From Candidatus Binataceae bacterium (GTDB lineage: Bacteria > Desulfobacterota > Binatia > Binatales > Binataceae): DNA of 64,000 bases. Below, in pieces: positions 35,588 through 44,506 of this stretch. Position numbers and translations under genes: made by a program. Position 1 is the stretch's first letter; each line of letters starts with the position of its first letter. The stretch spans positions 5,389 through 69,388 of the forward strand of contig DATKSQ010000106.1 of the NCBI GenBank assembly GCA_035531615.1, given 5' to 3'. The notes below the pieces were generated by a model that saw only the letters and a program-made list of their open reading frames with translations, did no database searches and had not been told where the DNA came from.

Positions 35588-36916
35588 ATGAACAAGAAAC
35601 CCAGAATCCTGCTGGTACAACCGACCACCGTCCATCTCGACGGAACTCCGCACAAAACCCGCTGGCGGCTGATCATGGGGCTGATGGTTCCGCTGATGGC
35701 GGGGCTGACGCCCGATGATTACGACGTCACCCTGTGCGACGAACGGCTTGAGGACATCAACTTCGACGGCGGATGGGATCTGGTCGGGATGACCACCACC
35801 ATCGGAGCGTCGCTGCGCGCCTATCAGCTCGGCGACGAATTCCGCAAGCGCGGCATTCCGGTGGTGTTCGGCGGCTTTCACGCCACCCTCCAGACCGACG
35901 AGGCGCTCCATCACGCCGACGCGGTGGTGCAGGGCGAGGCCGACCTGGTATGGCCCGAGCTCTTGCAGGATTGGCGCGACGGCAAGCTCAAGCAGATTTA
36001 CAAATCGACCAAGCTGCACGATCTTAAGAATCTGCCGCGCCCGCGCCACGAACTCCTGAAGCTCAACCGCTATCTGTTCAAGGCCGTCCCGGTGCAGGCC
36101 AGCCGGGGATGCCCGTATCGATGCTCGTTCTGCGAGATTCCGGTGTTCTACGACGGCAGCTACCGGACCCGCCCGATCGAGGACATCGTCGAGGAGATCA
36201 AGCAAACCATCAAGATCACCGGCTTCCGGCGCTTCCAGTTTATCGACGACCAAATCACCGGCAAGCACAAGTTCGCGCGCGAGTTATTCAAGGCGCTCGA
36301 GCCGCTCAATATCCGCTTCTCGTGCCTGTGGACGATCAACTCGAATCATGACGACGACCTGCTCGACCTGGCGGCCAAGGCCGGCATCTTCCACGTCAAT
36401 ATCGGCGTCGAGTCGATCAGCCAGGAATCGCTGTTGTCGATGAACAAGATTCAGAACCACGCCAATCAGTACAAGAAGCTGCTGGGCAAGCTTGAGAAGT
36501 ACGGAATCTACTACTCACTGAATTTCATGTTCGGACTCGAGGAAGACAAACCCGGCATCTTCGACGAGACGCTCAAGTTCCTGCACGAGGTCCGCGCCCC
36601 CGAGGCGTTCTTCAACACCGTCACGCCGCGGCGCGGGACGCCGATGCGCACGCAGCTCGAAAACGAGGGCCGCGTGATCATCCCCGACGCGGACCTGTAC
36701 ACCAACAACTTCCGCTGCATGTTCGTGCCCAAGAACATGTCGCCCCAGGAAGTTGAAGAGGGAGTCTGGCGCTGCACCAAGGAGTTCTATTCGATCAAGT
36801 CGATGTTCAAACGGCTATTGCTCCCGCCCAACAAGTTCACCTGGCAGGGCCTGACTGAGAATATGCTCTTCTGGTACGGCGCCAAGCGCCAAATCGACCC
36901 GGTCGATTACTATTAG
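35588..36916 (+). CDS. B12-binding radical SAM protein
   Basis: N-terminal B12 Rossmann part (ILLVQP...DLVGMTTTIGASLRAYQLGDEFRKRGIPVVFGGFH) and cluster motif SRGCPYRCSFCE (CxxxCxxC). Confidence 0.85.
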   Translation: MNKKPRILLVQPTTVHLDGTPHKTRWRLIMGLMVPLMAGLTPDDYDVTLCDERLEDINFDGGWDLVGMTTTIGASLRAYQLGDEFRKRGIPVVFGGFHATLQTDEALHHADAVVQGEADLVWPELLQDWRDGKLKQIYKSTKLHDLKNLPRPRHELLKLNRYLFKAVPVQASRGCPYRCSFCEIPVFYDGSYRTRPIEDIVEEIKQTIKITGFRRFQFIDDQITGKHKFARELFKALEPLNIRFSCLWTINSNHDDDLLDLAAKAGIFHVNIGVESISQESLLSMNKIQNHANQYKKLLGKLEKYGIYYSLNFMFGLEEDKPGIFDETLKFLHEVRAPEAFFNTVTPRRGTPMRTQLENEGRVIIPDADLYTNNFRCMFVPKNMSPQEVEEGVWRCTKEFYSIKSMFKRLLLPPNKFTWQGLTENMLFWYGAKRQIDPVDYY

Positions 36917-36943
36917 AGACCACCCTCATCAGGTGTGAAATCC

Positions 36944-36976
36944 GGGGCGGCCCAGCAAAGGCCGCCCCTTTTTTTC
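36944..36976 (+). terminator. rho-independent terminator
   Basis: ggggcggcc-cagcaaa-ggccgcccc is a perfect 9-bp GC stem, followed by ttttttt. It lies 28 nt after the radical SAM stop codon. Confidence 0.85.
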
Positions 36977-36981
36977 TGATT

Positions 36982-37014
36982 CCTCTCCCTGTAAGGGAGA
37001 GGCCAGGTGAGGGT
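36982..37014. repeat. REP/MITE-like element, family A (short copy)
   Basis: cctctccc-tgta-agggagagg hairpin followed by ccaggtgaggg. Confidence 0.6.
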
Positions 37015-37494
37015 CATTAGTTGCGCGGCCATCCATGGCCGCGCGACTACGATTCCGATTCAGCACGCTTCGATCACCAGCGTATGATCGCTACGCCTTT
37101 CTCGATCCAGGAAAATGGGTTCGTTCGAAATTTTTCACCCGATCGCTTCGGCCATTCCCCGCGCGGATGCTGGGAAATCTCGCCGAAACGGCAAGTTCGC
37201 CGCGCTCTTCGTCATTGTACCAGCCGCACCCCCGCCGCTTACTGATCCTGCGATTATCGTCAGCGTCACTCCTCGCGCCGCTGCGACGCGCCAATGACGT
37301 ATCCGCTGATGGTGGTTGATGTCCACGCGATCAGTTTTCCATAGATCAAAACCGGGCATAAGGCTGAACAGTTCAGCCATGAACAAATCTGGCAAAAAAT
37401 CTAACGAGTGTTAGAGGGTACGTTCCGAGCAGCACCCTCGCCAGCGCGTCACGATGCTTGCGAAAAAAGCGCGAGCTTCGCGCCGCACCGCCCG

Positions 37495-37624
37495 CTCCCA
37501 AATTCTTCGGGCGAGGGAATTAGCCACGCCTCTCTGTGCCGCCCTCTCCCAACGAGATTGGGAGAGGGTCGCGCGGCGCGGCGATTGCTCTTCTTGCAAT
37601 CGCCGTGACGCGCCGGGCGAGGGA
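37495..37624. repeat. REP/MITE-like elements, family A (two adjacent units)
   Basis: ctcccaaattcttcgggcgaggg, then ccctctccc-aacgagatt-gggagaggg, the ggcgattgc-N7-gcaatcgcc hairpin and gggcgaggga. The second unit is near-identical to 8077-8154. Confidence 0.8.
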
Positions 37625-37687
37625 CCGCCAGAAATGAAATCTGGCGCGCAGCACTACGGCGATTCCGGCACGGCGCAATATGCCCCT

Positions 37688-37725
37688 GTCATTCTCGCGC
37701 GTGGCTGTCGCGCAAGGAATCCCGG
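37688..37725. repeat. REP/MITE-like element, family B (single arm)
   Basis: gtcattctcgcgcgtggctgtcgcgcaaggaatcccgg. The same gtcattc..cgcgcg...ggaatcccgg unit occurs at 40181-40222, inverted at 40249-40286, and at 44533-44616. Confidence 0.75.
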
Positions 37726-37819
37726 CTCTGGGCGTGCCTGACGATTTTCATTAGCGCAGACCTTCGAGCGGGGACTCCGGCGCGGTGGTGGAAGCGGCCA
37801 AAGAGTTTCCGCCGTAGGT

Positions 37820-37890
37820 CCCTCACCCGGCGCGCGCAGCGCGCGCCACCCGCGCGCCAGTGGCGCATCCCAAATTCTTTTGGGAGAGGG
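37820..37890. repeat. REP/MITE-like element, family A variant
   Basis: ccctcacccggcgcgcg ... tcccaaattcttttgggagaggg. It shares the cccaaattctt core with 37495-37517 and the ccctcNccc/gggNgaggg termini. Confidence 0.65.
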
Positions 37891-38363
37891 ACAAGATCGC
37901 CCGCTCGTTTCTCTGCAAACGTCAGGCCCGCTTGGGCCGAACGCCCTGATAGCGGACCAGTTTCGCAACACCAACCGCGACCGTCACAAAGCCGGCCAGC
38001 ATCAGCGGGAGAAGCCCGCCACCCGAGAATACCCGACCCTGCCGCGTACCCGTCCCGTGACTTACGATAGTCGCTTTCAGAAAAGCTGTATCCTTTCTTG
38101 CCAAAATCGCCCACGGCATTAGTTCCTGCGGCAAGCCAGGTTGAGCTTGTATTGCTCTGGATCTGATATCGGCAAGATATCGCTGAGCAGGATCAAATCA
38201 GTCCCCCCATGAGACTCTTCGGAATTGGATCTCCCACCTGCTGCATAGCTCAGAGGCGCTTGGGCGCAAGTGGCGCGGCCTTCGATATACTCGATATACC
38301 AGACGGCGCTGTTGCAGGCGTAACGGCCACCCCGCTCCCCCTCCGCAGAGAATCGCCGCCGGA

Positions 38364-39461
38364 TCAGATACTCAGATGGTACAGCTCGGCGACGTTGTCG
38401 TGCAGGATGTAGTTCTTTTCCTGCTCGCTCAGGTTGGCGGTGTGCTTTTTCAGGATTTCCTGCGACCACGGCCAGGTCGAGTCGCTATGCGGGAAATCGT
38501 TGGCCCACATCAGGCGGCGGATATTGCACATATCCTTCATCTGGAACGCCACCCAGTCGTCCTGGAAGGTCAAGTAGATATTCTCGCGGAAATACTCACT
38601 CGGCATCTTCGACAGCGCTCCCGCCGGCAGCCAGTAGCGATGCCGATCGTAGGCATGATCCATCCGGTACATATAATGCGGCGCCCATCCGGCGTCCGCC
38701 TCGACGCAGATCAGCTTGAGCTTCGGATTGCGCTCGAAGACTCCGCCCAAAATGAAAGTACCCATGATGTCCTGGCATCCGCGGATGATCGACAAAAAGC
38801 TGTTCAGCTTGGGACCGCGAGTTTTGAAGTTATCCTGGCTCGAAGTCAGGATATGGAAGCTCAGCGGCAGCTCGAGGTCGATCGCAGCCTGGTAGAACGG
38901 ATCGTAAATCGGGCTGTCGTAGTCCTCGACCTGTGGATTGCCGGGCATCATCACGCCGCGCAGGCCAAGCTCCTTCATTTTGCGCAGGTCGGCGATGCCT
39001 TCCTGGACCGAGCGCATCGCGGTCTGACCGCATCCGATCAGGCGCCGCGGATGAGTCGCGCAATACTCGGCGATCCACAGGTTGTAGGCGTCGAAGCAGG
39101 CCTTCTTGTAATCGAAATCGCGATGGTTGCAGAGCACCATCCCGACTGTGGGATAGATCACCTCGGCGGCGACGCCGTCGCGCTCCTGATCGGCCATCCG
39201 CGCGTTGGGGTCCCATCCGCCGCGATGCATCTCCTCGAACTTGACGCCGCCGATCCTGAGATCCTCGGGGTTGCGGCCCGCCGCGGCGGCCAGCCCGATA
39301 TTCACCGGGCGCGGAAAGTCCTTGACGATAAACACGTCGCCGAGCTTGTCGTCGCGCACCATATGCGGCGCCGAATCCTTGTATTTCGAATCGATCCGGT
39401 CCACGTAGGTCCCGGCGGGCTCAGTGATATGCGAATCGGCGGAGATGATCGGCTTTTGCAT
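38364..39461 (-). CDS. amidohydrolase-2 family (ACMSD-like metal-dependent hydrolase/decarboxylase)
   Basis: MQKPIISADSHITEP (metal-binding HxH-type N-terminus: SADSH), FHILTSS, VEADAGW and WANDFPHSDSTWP are typical of Amidohydro_2. Confidence 0.85.
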   Translation of the reverse strand: MQKPIISADSHITEPAGTYVDRIDSKYKDSAPHMVRDDKLGDVFIVKDFPRPVNIGLAAAAGRNPEDLRIGGVKFEEMHRGGWDPNARMADQERDGVAAEVIYPTVGMVLCNHRDFDYKKACFDAYNLWIAEYCATHPRRLIGCGQTAMRSVQEGIADLRKMKELGLRGVMMPGNPQVEDYDSPIYDPFYQAAIDLELPLSFHILTSSQDNFKTRGPKLNSFLSIIRGCQDIMGTFILGGVFERNPKLKLICVEADAGWAPHYMYRMDHAYDRHRYWLPAGALSKMPSEYFRENIYLTFQDDWVAFQMKDMCNIRRLMWANDFPHSDSTWPWSQEILKKHTANLSEQEKNYILHDNVAELYHLSI

Positions 39462-39550
39462 GATTGGTTCCTCGACGCGTGTCGACGCGGCATTCTATGG
39501 ACTCAGGCGCGAGCGGACTTCGCGTGCTCTGATCCGCTAATAGCCCAAGC
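39427..39550. repeat. direct duplication, copy 1 (amidohydrolase leader plus first 12 codons)
   Basis: Aligns by eye with 41453-41580, with roughly a dozen substitutions and one ~5-nt indel. It covers atatgcgaatcggcggagat...ggactcaggcgcg.gcggacttcgcgtgct.tgatccgctaata...caagc. Confidence 0.85.
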
Positions 39551-39562
39551 CATGCATCTTTT

Positions 39563-39838
39563 TCAATCCGCTCGGGTATAGGTCGCATCCGCGGCTTCGG
39601 GCGGTGCACCACCCCAGATCAGAACATCAGGGCAGAGGTCGGCGCCGTTGGGCCAGACCACGGTCCCGCCTTCGACCCGTGTTGCTGCGAATACCGCCCG
39701 GTCTCTTTTGATGAGATCGAAGACCGGACCGACGAGAAGATGGGACACATCGCGTTCGATGACAGAGCCATCGGTCAGCGTCAATCTCAGTTTGAAGTCT
39801 TCCAGCACTTTGACTTCACGGACACGCAATAGGGCCAT
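39563..39838 (-). CDS. DUF2442 domain protein
   Basis: 91 aa. VREVKVLEDFKLRLTLTDGSVIERDVS...GGTVVWPNGADLCPDVL is the classic DUF2442 pattern. It is paired with DUF4160 upstream. Confidence 0.75.
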   Translation of the reverse strand: MALLRVREVKVLEDFKLRLTLTDGSVIERDVSHLLVGPVFDLIKRDRAVFAATRVEGGTVVWPNGADLCPDVLIWGGAPPEAADATYTRAD

Positions 39839-39849
39839 ATTCTTTCACC

Positions 39850-40110
39850 TCAATCGAGGGCTTCGATCTCGTTAAGCGCTTCTCCGTTGCGGGCGCGGCG
39901 CCAGTCTTCGCGAAGCTCGGTGCGATGGAGCGCAGCCCATTCAAGCACCAGCGCGAGCGCGCGCCGCGGCAGTGAACCGCGGAATACCGACAGAGTGTCA
40001 ATTTCGATCAAGGCCTCGAACTCGCCATATATCGCATGGAAATGCGCCGGCTCGTGGTCGCTGTAAAACATCCGGATCGCAATTCCGAAGAACCGGCTCA
40101 ATTCTGGCAT
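39850..40110 (-). CDS. DUF4160 domain protein
   Basis: 86 aa. MPELSRFFGIAIRMFYSDHEPAHFHAIYGEFEALIEIDT is the classic DUF4160 N-terminus (H-x-P-x-H-F-H). Confidence 0.8.
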   Translation of the reverse strand: MPELSRFFGIAIRMFYSDHEPAHFHAIYGEFEALIEIDTLSVFRGSLPRRALALVLEWAALHRTELREDWRRARNGEALNEIEALD

Positions 40111-40180
40111 CGCCGAATCACTCGTTTATCGAGTCCTGCACAAGATAGTGACGCCGGCCCGCTCCGGCGCGCCACCTTCT

Positions 40181-40286
40181 GTCATTCCCGCGCGCGTGTC
40201 CGGCGCGCGCGAGGAATCCCGGTTTGCAGCCGCGCGGCGGACCAAAAGACCGGGATTCTTCGCGCGGCAGCCACGCGCGAGAATGA
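40181..40286. repeat. REP/MITE-like element, family B (two inverted arms forming a long hairpin)
   Basis: gtcattcccgcgcgcgtgtccggcgcgcgcgaggaatcccggt ... accgggattcttcgcgcggcagccacgcgcgagaatgat. The arms are reverse complements of the same ~40-nt unit. Confidence 0.8.
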
Positions 40287-40434
40287 TATGCCAAGGAATC
40301 GGGCAAGAGCGGAAGTGTCACTATGATATACAGGGCTCAATAGGCTGGGCCATTCTTCGTCGAAGCTTACGCACGAGCGCGAGATCTTGGCAAGCCTCAG
40401 AACGGAGCGATACTTCACGGTCCCATCCGTCGAG

Positions 40435-41487
40435 TTAGCTGATCCCCGAGGGTATTACGGAGCGGAAAAATGCTACCGCGCCTTCGACCGTCCGCTCATA
40501 CGGATGATTTCGTTTTGGGGCCGTCAAACTCATGTAGGCGGCGTACCGCCAGTCATCGCCCTCTCGGCGGAATAACTTGTAGCGGATGCCGTCGGAGACT
40601 ACAAAGCGGTCGCAGGACGGGAAGGACCGCGCGTAGCCTTTCGCTTGCTCCGGAGCATAGCGCATGCCGTCGAACAAACGCTTGGATTCGATGATCATGA
40701 CGGGCTTGCTGCCCTTCTTGTATGGAGTGTCGAACAGAACAACATCCATGTTGCCCCACTCGATTTTTACCCTCTGCTCTGCCCAGCCAAGAGACATCAG
40801 TAGGGGCACGATCAGAAAGGTCCGGATCTCGTGCTCCCCAACTTCGGCTCCATGGTCGCCATAATACTTTGCCATGCGCCGGAGGCGCCAAATGGTCTTC
40901 GCGATGAGTTCAGCGCGCTGTCCAGGCAGACCGTCAACAATCAGAGACTCTATTACCTCGTCAACCGTAATAGGCTCAGATTTGGCGGGGATCGGTTCCG
41001 AGGCGAGATCTCTACCGCTTGCCCAGATGCGTCTGATTTCGGTGAGTGCCTGTTCGTTGTAAACTCTCTTCAGGGTTCCTCGAGTCAGACCCGAAACTAA
41101 GGTCGTAGCATCAGGGACTTTCCAATGTACTTCTCGGCAATGCTGCAGATCCCATCCCTCCACGTCTTCGAACACTTCTTGATGGACGTAGTCGGACCTC
41201 ACCTCGCCGATAGCAACAATTTCCCACTGGTCGCTGCGCGGGCGCTTGAGGGCGACCAGATCGCCTACGCTGATTTTCTCGGCGAATGGTTCCAGGAACG
41301 AACGGTAGGCTCCGCTCTCGCTCTTATTATAGGCATCTTTGTTCGTAAAGTAGTTTCCCAAGGATCCAGGACCGACGAGAATGACTCCGAACCTCAAGAA
41401 TACATCTGCATAGTCGCGGCTGCCGTCTCCTGCCGCCACCTGCCAGATGTTAATATGCGAATCGGCGGAGATAATCGGCTCTTGCAT
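40435..41487 (-). CDS. PD-(D/E)xK nuclease (type I restriction R-subunit N-terminal, HSDR_N-like) with an uncharacterised N-terminal beta-rich domain; chimeric 5-prime end
   Basis: C-terminal half: EHEIRTFLIVPLLMSLGWAEQRVKIEWGNMDVVLFDTPYKKGSKPVMIIESKRL...EQAKGYARSF...VVSDGIRYKLF, giving D ... E-x-K, then Q..Y, then the (T/S)DG layout of HSDR_N. The first 12 codons (MQEPIISADSHI) duplicate the amidohydrolase start. The gene is AT-richer than the host genes. Confidence 0.7.
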   Translation of the reverse strand: MQEPIISADSHINIWQVAAGDGSRDYADVFLRFGVILVGPGSLGNYFTNKDAYNKSESGAYRSFLEPFAEKISVGDLVALKRPRSDQWEIVAIGEVRSDYVHQEVFEDVEGWDLQHCREVHWKVPDATTLVSGLTRGTLKRVYNEQALTEIRRIWASGRDLASEPIPAKSEPITVDEVIESLIVDGLPGQRAELIAKTIWRLRRMAKYYGDHGAEVGEHEIRTFLIVPLLMSLGWAEQRVKIEWGNMDVVLFDTPYKKGSKPVMIIESKRLFDGMRYAPEQAKGYARSFPSCDRFVVSDGIRYKLFRREGDDWRYAAYMSLTAPKRNHPYERTVEGAVAFFRSVIPSGIS

Positions 41488-41580
41488 GAATGGTTGCTCG
41501 ACTGTCTCAACGCGGCATCATATCATATGGACTCAGGCGCGGGCGGACTTCGCGTGCTTTGATCCGCTAATATCTCAAGC
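41453..41580. repeat. direct duplication, copy 2
   Basis: See copy 1 at 39427-39550. Here it supplies the leader and start codon of the nuclease ORF. Confidence 0.85.
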
Positions 41581-41606
41581 TGCGCTTTTTTGACAGAGAC
41601 CGGCGG

Positions 41607-42086
41607 TCATTGACCCGCCTGCTCGGCGGCAAATTTCTGGAGACTTGCGTAATTGTGGATGCCTCTCTTGCAGTTGCGCTTACCAAGAATCGTCCCGTCA
41701 ACGCGCTGCTGTAAGTATTCCACCAGCTCATTAAATCGCGTCTGCGGGATAAAGTACGTGGGCGCCTTGAATTCACGCTCGATGTTCTTGAAAATAACCG
41801 CGTAGCTGAATCGAGCGGGGTTACGGCCAAACCCCGCGTCAGCCTCGCGGAAACGGTGATAGCGTTCGACCAGATATTTGACGTAGTTGCGCTGCAAGAG
41901 GTCGCTTCCGATCGAACCGAGGGGATATTCGGATGGACGACTGGAGCGTCGGCCGCGAAGAACCTGGTTGATCGTGGTGGAACCGGTGTGCACGTCACCA
42001 TGAATCGTACTGCCCGCAATCGACGTGACATTTGCGCCGTTGGTGATCGTGCTCTTTTCCGCGCGGGTTGAAATGCCGTGTTTCAT
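41607..42086 (-). CDS. hypothetical protein (159 aa), partner of the DUF4062/TIR-like gene
   Basis: The ATG at 42086 overlaps the upstream stop (ATGA). It has a Gly/Ser/Thr-rich N-terminus (ITNGANVTSIAGSTIHGDVHTGSTTIN) and a C-terminal domain YVKYLVERYHRF...FSYAVIFKNIEREF...FNELVEYLQQRVDGT. I recognise no family. Confidence 0.6.
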   Translation of the reverse strand: MKHGISTRAEKSTITNGANVTSIAGSTIHGDVHTGSTTINQVLRGRRSSRPSEYPLGSIGSDLLQRNYVKYLVERYHRFREADAGFGRNPARFSYAVIFKNIEREFKAPTYFIPQTRFNELVEYLQQRVDGTILGKRNCKRGIHNYASLQKFAAEQAGQ

Positions 42087-42616
42087 TGCTTCTTCCTCGC
42101 GAGTGCAACGACTTCGCGCATGACGAATGCCAGATCCTTTCTCACCGTCGCTTCGAATTCCTTCAGACCAGGATACGTCCCATAAAGCGCGTTCTTTCCC
42201 AACTGCTGTCTGAACTGTTCCATCCTGGCGTTTTCACGCGAATCAGGCCGTCGCCTTTCCGGCCCAAGGCGCTGTGAAAAGTATACCATCACCTTCTTGC
42301 CCCGTCTGCGGGCGCGCTCGATTTCCTCCACAGTTCCAGATTCGGCTTTCCCCGTCGGGCTTCCGAGGCGCCGCCAGAAGATCGCGATCACAATGTCCGC
42401 ACGATCGGCAAATTGGCGATTGAGCAACGCTTGAGGCCGTCTGCCAGCGTCCGGGTGCGCATGTGTTCGCCAGTTCATGAGCTCCACGCGCGCTCGCACT
42501 GCGTCGCCATGCTGCACGTTCCAATCATTGATCGCACCGGCTAAGAGGGTGTGCTCCTCCATTATGTCCGAGGGAGCGGCCAGCAGGATTCGGAAAAGCT
42601 GAATTGTCTCGGGCAT
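42083..42616 (-). CDS. DUF4062 / TIR-like / nucleoside-2-deoxyribosyltransferase-like Rossmannoid domain protein
   Basis: The ORF is open to the TTG at 42637, but I use the ATG at 42616 (MPETIQLFRILLAAPSD...). The core is DRADIVIAIFWRRLGSPTGKAESGTVEEIERARRRGKKVMVYF: strand, loop, SGT-x-E-E helix, then GK-x-V strand. The family call is from memory and unverified. Confidence 0.55.
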   Translation of the reverse strand: MPETIQLFRILLAAPSDIMEEHTLLAGAINDWNVQHGDAVRARVELMNWRTHAHPDAGRRPQALLNRQFADRADIVIAIFWRRLGSPTGKAESGTVEEIERARRRGKKVMVYFSQRLGPERRRPDSRENARMEQFRQQLGKNALYGTYPGLKEFEATVRKDLAFVMREVVALARKKQ

Positions 42617-42805
42617 CGGGCAGGAACCTACACGCAACCGCCCTGACGCCGCAATCCGCTCGCGGCATTTCGCGGGTCACGGGGGCGGCTGCGGGCTTGT
42701 CGCGGAATCCCGATTCGTGGAATAAGATGAGGTTATGTCCCGGGCGTCGATGAGCACGGCGCGGCGCCCGATTCTTCACCAGTCCCGGATGGCCACGGAG
42801 GCTTT

Positions 42806-44506
42806 ATGCACGATCTGATCATTCGCAATGGCACTGTAATCGACGGCTCGGGAATGGCGCGCTTTCGCGCGGACGTGGCTATCAGCGGCGGGCGGATCGC
42901 CGCGATTGGAAAGGTCCGCGAACGCGCCAAGCAGGAAATCGACGCCGACGGCCACGTCGTCACGCCGGGAATTATCGACGGGCACACCCATATGGACGCC
43001 CAGGTGTTCTGGGATCCGATGGGCACCTGCTCGTGCTGGCATGGCGTGACCTCGGTGGTGATGGGCAACTGCGGCTTCTCGCTGGCGCCGTGCGCAGAGA
43101 AGGACAAGCAACTCGTGATGCGCAACCTCGAACGGGCCGAGGATATCGCGCCCGAAGCGATGGAGGCGGGAATCAAGTGGAGCTGGGAAAGCTTTCCCGA
43201 ATACCTGGACGCGGTTGACCGCACCCCCAAGGGAATCAATTACGCCGCCTATATCGGACATTCCGCGCTGCGCACCTATGTGATGGGCGAGCGCGCGTTC
43301 TCGCGCGAGGCCAACGGCGAAGATCTCGATGCGATGCGGCGCGAGCTGCGCGGTGCGATTCGCGCCGGCGCGATGGGCTTCACCACTTCGCGCACCCGCA
43401 ACCATCAGACTCCCGACGGCCATCCTGTAGCGAGCCGAATCGCCAACTGGGACGAGGTCCGGCAGTTGGTCGGCGTGATGGGCGAAGAGCAGGCCGGCAT
43501 CTTCGAGATCGCCGGCGAAAACACCGGCGCCGATCCCGAGCGGGTTAACGATTATCTGGGCCGGCTGAAGTCGCTCGCGGTCGAAACCGGAGTCCCGGTC
43601 ACCTTCGGGATGTTCAGTAGCCGGACCGCGCCCGACTTCTGGCGCCCGTACTTCACGCTGGCCGAGGAAACCGCCGCGGCGGGCGGCAGGATGTTCATCC
43701 AGGTGCATAGCCGGGCGCTCAACGTCGTGCTCTCGTTTGAGACCGCGATGCCGTTTGACCGGATGCCGGTATGGTCCGAGATCCGCAAGCTGCCGCTGTC
43801 CGAGCAGGAAGCCGCGCTGCGCAACCCCGAGATTCGGCGACAGCTCGTCAGGGCGGTCAACGAGTCATCAGGCGGCCGCGCGGTCGGCGCCGAGCCGCGG
43901 CACGCGAACTTCGAGTGGCTGTTCGTGATGGACAAGCCCAACCCGCCGCATCGCTCGATCGCCGATATTGCGCGCGAACTGGGCCAGGATCCGGTCGAGG
44001 TAATTATCGACCTGGCTCTGGAAAAGCATCTCAAGCAGTTCTTCCTCCAGCCGCTTGCGAACGAAAACCAGGCCGACGTGCTCGAGATGATGCGCCATCC
44101 GCGATCCGTAGTTACCTTCTCGGACTCGGGCGCGCATGTCTCGCAGATCATGGACTCGTCTCTGCAAAGCCATGTGCTGAGCTACTGGGTGCGCGATCGG
44201 CAGGCGATGACGCTCGAGGAAGCGATTCGGATGCTGACCTTCGTGCCCGCCTCATACTGGGGGCTGGGTGGACGCGGACTGCTGCGCGAAGGATATGCGG
44301 CGGACGTGATCGTGTTCAACCCGGATACGATTGCGCCGCTGATGCCGGAGCTCGATCACGACCTGCCCGCCAGCGCACGGCGCCTCAAGCAGAAAGCGGG
44401 AGGGCTTTTGGCCACAATCGTCAACGGCGAAACGGTGCTGCGCAATAACCAGCCCACCGGCGCGCTGCCGGGACGGTTGCTGCGCGGGCCGCTGGCGGCG
44501 CGCTAG
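42806..44506 (+). CDS. N-acyl-D-amino-acid deacylase (D-aminoacylase) family amidohydrolase
   Basis: LIIRNGTVIDGSG...DVAISGGRIAAIG...DADGHVVTPGIIDGHTHMD, 566 aa, with the C-terminal ADVIVFNP motif. Confidence 0.85.
   Translation: MHDLIIRNGTVIDGSGMARFRADVAISGGRIAAIGKVRERAKQEIDADGHVVTPGIIDGHTHMDAQVFWDPMGTCSCWHGVTSVVMGNCGFSLAPCAEKDKQLVMRNLERAEDIAPEAMEAGIKWSWESFPEYLDAVDRTPKGINYAAYIGHSALRTYVMGERAFSREANGEDLDAMRRELRGAIRAGAMGFTTSRTRNHQTPDGHPVASRIANWDEVRQLVGVMGEEQAGIFEIAGENTGADPERVNDYLGRLKSLAVETGVPVTFGMFSSRTAPDFWRPYFTLAEETAAAGGRMFIQVHSRALNVVLSFETAMPFDRMPVWSEIRKLPLSEQEAALRNPEIRRQLVRAVNESSGGRAVGAEPRHANFEWLFVMDKPNPPHRSIADIARELGQDPVEVIIDLALEKHLKQFFLQPLANENQADVLEMMRHPRSVVTFSDSGAHVSQIMDSSLQSHVLSYWVRDRQAMTLEEAIRMLTFVPASYWGLGGRGLLREGYAADVIVFNPDTIAPLMPELDHDLPASARRLKQKAGGLLATIVNGETVLRNNQPTGALPGRLLRGPLAAR

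Follow-up and report, generated by a model that had tools for sequence, protein, structure and literature searches.

Probable capture of an amidohydrolase promoter and start codon by a horizontally acquired defense gene in an uncultured Binataceae genome

We describe two unrelated genes that share an upstream region and their first codons in a 64,000-nt stretch of DNA (contig DATKSQ010000106.1, positions 5,389 to 69,388; hereafter, the window) from a metagenome-assembled genome (MAG) of a Candidatus Binataceae bacterium (GCA_035531615.1). One encodes a resident amidohydrolase and the other a nuclease of the DUF8426 family; the genes concerned all lie on the minus strand. Comparison of the sequences makes it likely that the nuclease gene, a horizontally acquired defense gene, captured the promoter and translation start of the amidohydrolase gene. 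On this reading, a foreign DUF8426 gene would have come to lie in a genomic hotspot and would have lost its own promoter, 5′ untranslated region (5′UTR), and ATG, with a diverged copy of the amidohydrolase 5′ region now in their place. Translation from the borrowed ATG would then yield a normal enzyme with a disordered 12-residue tag (MQEPIISADSHI), and transcription might come from the borrowed promoter, from read-through of a two-gene cassette upstream, or from both. Illegitimate recombination, perhaps with the help of microhomology, is the most likely origin of the joint, which would then have been selected for expression. It may have formed by duplication or deletion within the lineage, as known from promoter capture in the laboratory, or by recombination of two alleles that was homologous on one side and illegitimate on the other.

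The repeat and the fusion joint

Comparison of the window with itself recovered two direct, collinear repeat blocks, 39427–39476 paired with 41453–41502 (92% identity) and 39496–39561 paired with 41526–41591 (86%), with a third short block between them. Alignment with MAFFT merges these into one repeat of ~135 nt with two indels (one of 5 nt and one of 1 nt), in which copy 1 (39427 to ~39562) and copy 2 (41453 to ~41596) are 83%–87% identical and the longest identical run is 20 nt. The 66-nt block at 86% identity spans about −35 to −100 from the ATG. The repeat is secure upstream to ~39562 and 41591, and continues at weaker identity through a −35-like hexamer to 39566 and 41596. Including that hexamer, we place the native 5′ region (copy 1) at 39427..39566 and the putatively captured one (copy 2) at 41453..41596, both on the minus strand; the former is supported by the repeat search, MAFFT, and conservation in orthologues, the latter by the first two and by comparison with orthologue leaders. 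A first-pass annotation made from the sequence alone had described a direct duplication of ~125 bp here, and it proves to be real and slightly longer upstream than was stated.

The whole 3.67-Mb assembly (a 153-contig MAG, 87% complete) was searched for further copies of the repeat. There are only two full copies, the second being found at 87% identity over 124–128 nt (E 7e-37), and the sole extra match is one of 36 nt to the first codons of an amidohydrolase paralogue, 80% identical, on another contig (C76). This paralogue was ruled out as the source of copy 2, given that the match there is limited to 36 coding nucleotides.

Both copies contain an ATG followed by Q-(K/E)-P-I-I-S-A-D-S-H-I, and the reading frames agree with the first-pass annotation in giving the two genes the same leader and N-terminal residues. 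The proteins downstream from the two copies are unrelated. Copy 1 leads into the resident gene (38364..39461, minus strand), which encodes the 365-aa amidohydrolase that had been proposed (Amidohydro_2, PF04909, E 4.8e-24) and from whose first 12 codons (MQKPIISADSHI) the borrowed tag derives. Copy 2 runs in frame into an open reading frame (ORF) of 350 aa, 338 codons of which have DUF8426 homology. This ORF had been called unrelated and AT-richer, correctly in both respects: its GC content at third codon positions (GC3) is 64.6%, vs. 81.7% for the amidohydrolase gene.

The joint itself is sharp. Homology to copy 1 stops at 41453 and homology to DUF8426 genes begins at 41451. In alignments to copy 1 and to the homologues, the junction codon (ATT, Ile; 41452..41454, minus strand) occupies the position of the native Met codon. 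All 20 aligned homologues start M-[TSKN]-I-W, their N-termini uniformly reading M-[TSKN]-I-W-Q-V-A-A-G-D-G, and none begins with MQxPIISADSH; in the window ORF, the Ile at the Met position is instead preceded by 11 amidohydrolase codons. The alignment that locates the native N-terminus at M-[TSKN]-IWQV thus bears out the chimeric N-terminus that had been suggested, with amidohydrolase codons replacing the native Met. In the two nearest homologues, the 5′ DNA consists of a TATAAT-like box followed at a distance by gaattcgATG (tataat...gaattcgATGAcCATcTGG); this common upstream DNA is missing here, and homology begins at the second codon. The open frame of the DUF8426 ORF has no other start codon, and use of the next candidate start, a GTG (Val17), would cost the invariant W15/Q16 and the first β-strand. 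The 350-aa ORF is without a promoter and start of its own, with copy 2 giving the sole in-frame start. Translation would have to begin at the borrowed ATG because the native promoter, 5′UTR, and ATG have been replaced by copy 2.

The captured gene

The body of the DUF8426 gene (40435..41451, minus strand) encodes a YTH/EVE-like N-terminal domain and a PD-(D/E)xK C-terminal domain, as assigned from its homologues, an AlphaFold (AF2) model, and Foldseek. There are 456 homologues in a large protein collection (best match 78% identity over 97% of the length); homologues are 335–343 aa long and cover 96%–97% of the query. A match to PF28530 (DUF8426) is precomputed for the window protein; the model is not in the local copy of Pfam, in which the ORF had no match. 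D248 and E267-S-K269 are invariant in 21 aligned sequences, and some homologues match HSDR_N-type models (PF04313 or PF13588). The AF2 model, built from 21 sequences, has a mean predicted local distance difference test (pLDDT) score of 87, with residues 1–9 below 50 and the first strand starting at residue 14. In the model, then, the borrowed 12 N-terminal residues form a disordered tag and the fold starts at residue 14.

When searched against the Protein Data Bank with Foldseek, the N-terminal domain matched YTH/EVE/PUA-like readers with a probability of 1.0, but the resemblance is modest (template modeling [TM] score of 0.5–0.6 on the target, 10%–13% identity). The best full-length match is VcaM4I (6yex), a modification-dependent endonuclease, and there are weak matches to restriction-endonuclease domains and HsdR. 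No methyltransferase gene lies adjacent to the DUF8426 gene, based on the ORFs of the window and a Pfam scan. Because of the predicted fold and the motifs, the product is probably a candidate modification-dependent type IV restriction enzyme encoded by a single gene.

DUF8426 occurs in none of 164 other genomes of the family, and the GC3 of the gene is near that of its homologues (64%–66%) vs. about 82% in the flanking amidohydrolase genes. These observations argue that the gene was acquired from outside Binataceae. The ORF is full length, and its dN/dS (the ratio of nonsynonymous to synonymous substitution rates) against the two nearest homologues is 0.07–0.11, with dS saturated. Homologues are solitary genes in changing, partly defense-island-like neighborhoods; no conserved neighbors and no common mobile-element frame were found among them, and what they share is the coding sequence alone.

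Resident and lineage-specific DNA at the locus

Comparison with relatives, including those without the insertion, separates resident from newly arrived DNA. Amidohydrolase orthologues (87%–93% amino acid identity) lie in the same position in nine same-genus genomes, and in G003, G004, G005, and G009 the orthologous leader and gene are arranged collinearly with copy 1. Because copy 1 is collinear with the relatives and copy 2 lies within lineage-specific DNA, copy 1 is in its ancestral place, and copying would have been from the resident gene to the newcomer.

G009 provides an empty site. There, the order is aminoacylase, 121 bp, DUF4160, DUF2442, leader, amidohydrolase. Homology between the window and G009 breaks at 42694 and resumes at ~40126–40130, with the left border (42692–42695) identical in all relatives. 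The intervening lineage-specific block (40127..42694, ~2.57 kb), delimited by blastn and pairwise alignment of both borders, stands in place of the 121 bp. It contains a DUF4062/TIR-like cassette, copy 2 in mid-block, the DUF8426 body, and a REP-like palindromic hairpin at its right edge (40181..40286; inverted and direct repeat families I1 and D5). No target-site duplication was seen at the borders relative to G009.

These borders do not fit the first-pass annotation in two respects. The repeats had been said to bracket a 2-kb insertion, but the borders at 42694 and ~40127 are not those of the repeats (39427–39566 and 41453–41596). In addition, DUF4160 (39850–40110, minus strand; Pfam E 7.9e-21) and DUF2442 (39563–39838, minus strand; Pfam E 2.6e-10) had been taken to be imported with the nuclease. 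This pair (84% DNA identity to that of G009) is instead resident and outside the insertion because G009 carries both genes at the same place; G003 and G005, which are partial empty sites, have DUF2442 followed by the leader and the amidohydrolase gene.

The cassette (41607..42637, minus strand) has two genes encoding proteins of 184 aa (DUF4062/TIR-like) and 159 aa and matches PADLOC PDC-S60 (E 6.6e-27). Eight other genera of the family have the cassette as a unit, with homology stopping at the stop codon of the 159-aa gene, and copy 2 begins ~10 nt past that stop codon. On the far side of the block is a divergent D-aminoacylase-type amidohydrolase gene (42806..44506, plus strand), identified by precomputed PF07969/PF01979 matches and by synteny in relatives. 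This gene and a conserved 112-bp region upstream of it form the left edge of a variable hotspot. The space between the aminoacylase and amidohydrolase genes differs in every same-genus genome: it is ~3.3 kb in the window and 258–344 bp in G007 and G006, and it holds a 3.98-kb block of other genes in G010. It is thus a variable hotspot in this Binataceae genus.

Some further details of the hotspot were noted. The G010 block (L031, G010:C15) encodes a TetR-like regulator, a 635-aa multi-pass membrane protein, and a UbiA-like prenyltransferase, and the leader in G004 is preceded by a protein-L-isoaspartate-methyltransferase-like gene. In G009 (L062, G009:C1), the amidohydrolase, DUF4160, and aminoacylase orthologues are each split by frameshifts in tblastn, and these could be either pseudogenes or long-read assembly indel errors. 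Every same-genus genome has the identical left edge to its variable region, marked by a conserved motif upstream of the aminoacylase gene (42694–42745 in the window; ATCTTATTCCACGAATC.(C/G)GATTCCGCGACAAGC), which in part resembles the core of REP “family B” (CGGGATTC).

Promoter, leader, and start signals

In copy 1, a −35-like TTGAAA (39566–39561, minus strand) is separated by an 18-nt spacer from a −10-like TATTAG (39542–39537), and these are followed by a 5′UTR of ~75 nt with a Shine-Dalgarno sequence (SD) GAGGAA (39473–39468), the ATG (39461–39459), and codons 2–12. The equivalents in copy 2, also on the minus strand, are CTGTCA (41596–41591), TATTAG (41572–41567) after a spacer of 18 nt, a 5′UTR with a 5-nt insertion, SD GAGCAA (41499–41494), ATG (41487–41485), and codons 2–12 with K3E. 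A block of the form TTG.AA-N17/18-...GCTTG.G.TA(T/A)T is conserved before the orthologue in all same-genus genomes, where the other intergenic DNA is unalignable. That conservation is the one basis on which we take the block to be the putative amidohydrolase promoter. The idea that copy 2 donates expression signals accordingly holds for the SD, the 5′UTR, the sole in-frame start, and the presence of a conserved promoter-like block, and the activity of that block as a promoter stays presumptive. The indispensable borrowed part is the SD and ATG.

The −35-like TTGAAA of copy 1 overlaps the DUF2442 stop codon (TGA, 39565–39563); the DUF2442 ORF of G005 stops ~150 nt further upstream. Just 5′ of the SD (39476–39489), there is a 5-bp hairpin whose sequence varies (CGCGU/ACGCG, GCGCC/GGCGC, GCGUC/GACGC). 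It is kept in copy 1, G005, and G003 (the L029 and L030 leaders) and destroyed in copy 2. A structured leader or riboswitch was ruled out, as there was no Rfam match at E ≤ 1 in 39300–42900 and no significantly stable fold: leader folds were no better than those of shuffled sequences (z of +0.5, +1.6, −1.5, and −0.2), and RNAalifold applied to the leaders found one compensatory pair only.

Age of the copies and route of formation

The leaders of G003, G004, and G005 were used as the reference for polarizing differences between the copies. Copies 1 and 2 share 10 derived sites, and private changes number 10 in copy 2 (plus indels) vs. six in copy 1. Because of the shared derived sites, the copies are sisters that split long before the present population arose. 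An old duplication would imply that the fused gene has stayed intact ever since; the alternative is that two alleles that already differed were brought together.

Several results weigh against capture, or at least against a simple version of it. A strict sigma-70 consensus scan of the minus strand called no promoter in either copy, and copy 2 has a weaker SD (GAGCAA vs. GAGGAA) and a poorer −35 than copy 1. The terminator scan found none between the upstream cassette and copy 2; because of this, read-through transcription from the cassette is possible, and the promoter of copy 2 may be dispensable. The copies are 13%–17% diverged, indicating that the event is old or that they came from different alleles. 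The certain microhomology at the joint is no more than 2 nt (AT), and a nearby ATTCG similarity rests on the upstream DNA of other homologues, not on that of the donor. Finally, neither 165 family genomes nor metagenome scans yielded an intermediate arrangement. Metagenome scans with the DUF7683-DUF8426 protein P0007 (see below) and with a copy-2-specific 27-mer returned nothing, and a family-wide search with the copy-2 leader found only the orthologous leader of G009.

Three routes to the present layout can be envisaged. In route (a), a tandem duplication running from the DUF8426 start to amidohydrolase codon 12 would have placed the downstream promoter before the second gene copy, as happened in laboratory promoter capture (PMC6614815, and the Cit+ case cited in PMC3575422), the first DUF8426 copy being later lost or replaced. 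In route (b), two alleles of the locus would have come to lie adjacent, and a deletion would then have fused amidohydrolase codon 12 to the DUF8426 start. In route (c), there would have been one homology-facilitated illegitimate recombination between a recipient with the order cassette, leader, amidohydrolase and a donor with the order DUF8426, REP, DUF pair, leader, amidohydrolase. Routes (b) and (c) would explain the divergence of the copies and the position of copy 2 right beside the cassette. Local duplications are frequent, as selection would require for an exact in-frame joint to turn up, and this agrees better with route (a). Selection among illegitimate joints is suggested by the in-frame position of the joint, no more than one base from the native start codon.

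The single-step, two-allele version deserves separate attention, as it would change what copy 2 is. Here, the promoter and start in copy 2 would belong to the recipient itself, a strain with the order aminoacylase, DUF4062 cassette, leader, amidohydrolase, into which a fragment from a related strain integrated with its right crossover inside the amidohydrolase gene and its left joint at codon 12. This one event would explain why copy 2 starts ~10 nt past the end of the cassette, why the copies differ by 13%–17% in a population otherwise 99.98%–100% identical, and why there are private changes in both copies.

There is also a precedent for allelic exchange at this hotspot. Two other assemblies are 99.98%–100% identical to the window over 10 kb. 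In contrast to these, L038 (ENA ERZ27256799) is identical from 36600 to 41800 but has ~75 mismatches and eight gaps in 41800–43110, all of them in the 184/159-aa cassette or at the beginning of the aminoacylase gene. The pattern suggests that L038 carries a recombined DUF4062 cassette allele, with a homologous replacement tract that has one breakpoint (~41800) in the 159-aa gene. On the other hand, neither parental arrangement was found in the 165 family genomes or the metagenome scans, and there is no mosaic signal along the amidohydrolase gene (sliding-window identity against six orthologues gave no crossover-type breakpoint). An exact in-frame joint would also be harder to obtain from rare transformation than from frequent local duplications and deletions. 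We regard the two-allele origin as possible but somewhat doubtful; it concerns the route and is compatible with promoter and start capture.

Other explanations

A different objection is that the fusion is an accidental by-product of rearrangement, with a DUF8426 gene that is silent or decaying and a borrowed start that has no function. The weakened SD and lost pre-SD hairpin of copy 2 would be in keeping with this, and, if the event were recent, an intact ORF would prove little. However, without selection one would hardly expect a joint that is in frame and no more than a base away from the native start codon, the 350-codon ORF is free of defects and has all invariant residues of the family, and dN/dS is about 0.1. 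Two haplotypes and several samples give the identical protein. Furthermore, private changes in copy 2 are distributed as one in 36 coding nucleotides vs. ~9, plus indels, in ~100 noncoding nucleotides. We therefore consider a functionless scar to be unlikely.

It is very improbable that a mobile element brought in the 2 kb between the repeats and that these are its attachment sites or target duplication, as the bracketing arrangement first suggested. The repeats are direct and there is foreign-looking DNA between them, but the lineage-specific borders do not match the repeats, the DUF pair between them is resident (with DUF2442 also in G003 and G005), and the DUF8426 homologues have no flanks in common. 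No ORF or domain of an integrase, transposase, or relaxase was found in 39.4–42.8 kb in ORF, Pfam, NCBIfam, or PADLOC scans.

The gene order is well supported by independent assemblies. The identical 350-aa protein and gene order are present in contigs from JGI 3300031670, ENA ERZ27256801, and ENA ERZ27256799, and three Logan contigs match the window perfectly (100% identity) from the 159-aa gene through copy 2 into DUF8426. In all, the layout was assembled in three long and three short metagenome contigs that represent two haplotypes. All three Logan contigs end inside the REP-like hairpin, at 40257 or 40291, as would be expected if a dispersed repeat interrupts short-read assemblies. Although the genome is a 153-contig MAG, a chimeric or mis-joined contig at the repeat is scarcely credible, given the agreement in order among contigs assembled from several samples (JGI, ENA, and Logan; one of them a distinct haplotype), the three Logan contigs that cross the copy 2 junction without a mismatch, and the limit of 20 identical bases in a row between the copies, too short to confuse a k-mer assembler.

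A possible second case and wider meaning

One DUF8426 homologue, P0007 (71% identity; 33-kb contig, JGI 3300047160), has a 95-residue DUF7683 prefix and Asn at the Met position, and its gene is flanked by a 103-aa Amidohydro_2 fragment on one side and a full 393-aa Amidohydro_2 gene on the other. It may be a second, independent start-loss fusion beside amidohydrolase genes. Start loss as a habit of the DUF8426 family was ruled out: the extension of P0037 reflects an ordinary upstream ATG with its own SD before the second ATG, and most other N-terminally extended homologues retain the Met.

Because a DUF8426 gene adjoins an Amidohydro_2 fragment in P0007, which we treat as a hint, one may speculate that the intergenic space is a recurrent “expression site” where defense genes are plugged in behind a copy of the amidohydrolase 5′ region by homology-anchored illegitimate recombination. 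We consider this rather improbable. If it were true, a modification-dependent restriction enzyme would have been placed under the regulatory circuit of a catabolic gene, and the route would be reused in Binatia, where the many Amidohydro_2 paralogues could serve as anchors.

There is also a practical lesson for annotation. The first 12 residues of the nuclease read as an amidohydrolase metal site, but they belong to a restriction-type enzyme.

Comparison with known systems

The gain of expression by transferred genes has mostly been studied in laboratory evolution, and well-resolved natural examples are few. A laboratory case, reportedly described by Blount et al. in 2012, is the rnk-citT tandem duplication of the Escherichia coli long-term evolution experiment. 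The commentary PMC3575422 cites this Cit+ case as promoter capture and also reports a catalog of >4000 families of upstream regions that have been reused. In E. coli, deletions or tandem duplications that captured a resident promoter also activated transferred genes, often at microhomologies of 3–12 bp (Li and Bock 2019, PMC6614815). The Binataceae locus is like these cases in having a copy of a resident promoter, here putative, directly upstream of a gene that lacks usable expression signals, and probably in that the joints are illegitimate, often microhomology-mediated, with selection retaining the productive ones. It differs in that the SD, ATG, and 11 codons are also captured, making a translational fusion at the native start codon, and in that a single copy of the captured gene is left and the repeat copies are 13%–17% diverged. 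Moreover, it is a natural case in an uncultured lineage, for which duplication, deletion, and allelic recombination are all candidate routes.

The locus can also be compared with putative mobile promoters, defined by ≥80% identity across ≥50 nt of the DNA that precedes nonparalogous genes (Matus-Garcia, Nijveen and van Passel 2012, as summarized in PMC3575422). The 66-nt upstream block at 86% identity falls within this definition. As in those cases, two nonhomologous genes in one genome have similar upstream DNA and no insertion sequence (IS) element is involved. According to that summary, the survey excluded pairs in which similarity extends into the coding region, whereas here it continues 36 nt into it. 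In addition, synteny allows the direction of copying to be deduced in the present case.

As for the nuclease, VcaM4I (EVE-HNH, 6yex) resembles the predicted product in having an N-terminal YTH/EVE-like domain followed by a nuclease, encoded by a stand-alone gene without a methyltransferase, and the defense-island-like neighborhoods of DUF8426 homologues are also shared with modification-dependent (type IV) enzymes that have PUA-superfamily readers. In contrast to VcaM4I, the nuclease here is of the HSDR_N-type PD-(D/E)xK kind and not HNH, with a predicted fold and 10%–13% identity to solved structures. Unlike integrative or transposable elements bounded by attachment sites or target-site duplications, the insert is not bordered by the repeats and no recombinase was found in the scans of 39.4–42.8 kb.

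Homology-facilitated illegitimate recombination, reportedly described by de Vries and Wackernagel and by Prudhomme et al. in 2002, joins foreign DNA beside a homologous anchor at one end and at little or no homology at the other. With two alleles of the locus as its substrates, it would result in just this layout; a difference is that the junction microhomology here is 2 nt, and the parental alleles were not found in the scans.

Promoter and start-codon capture is a known event, and we see here no new mechanism or kind of system. What sets the locus apart is that the empty site, the foreign origin of the gene, the exact start-codon joint, and the resident source of the signals are visible together, and that the captured gene is a candidate anti-phage nuclease in a defense hotspot of an uncultured soil lineage. 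Its value, in comparison with the laboratory cases, is as a textbook-style natural illustration of promoter and start capture.

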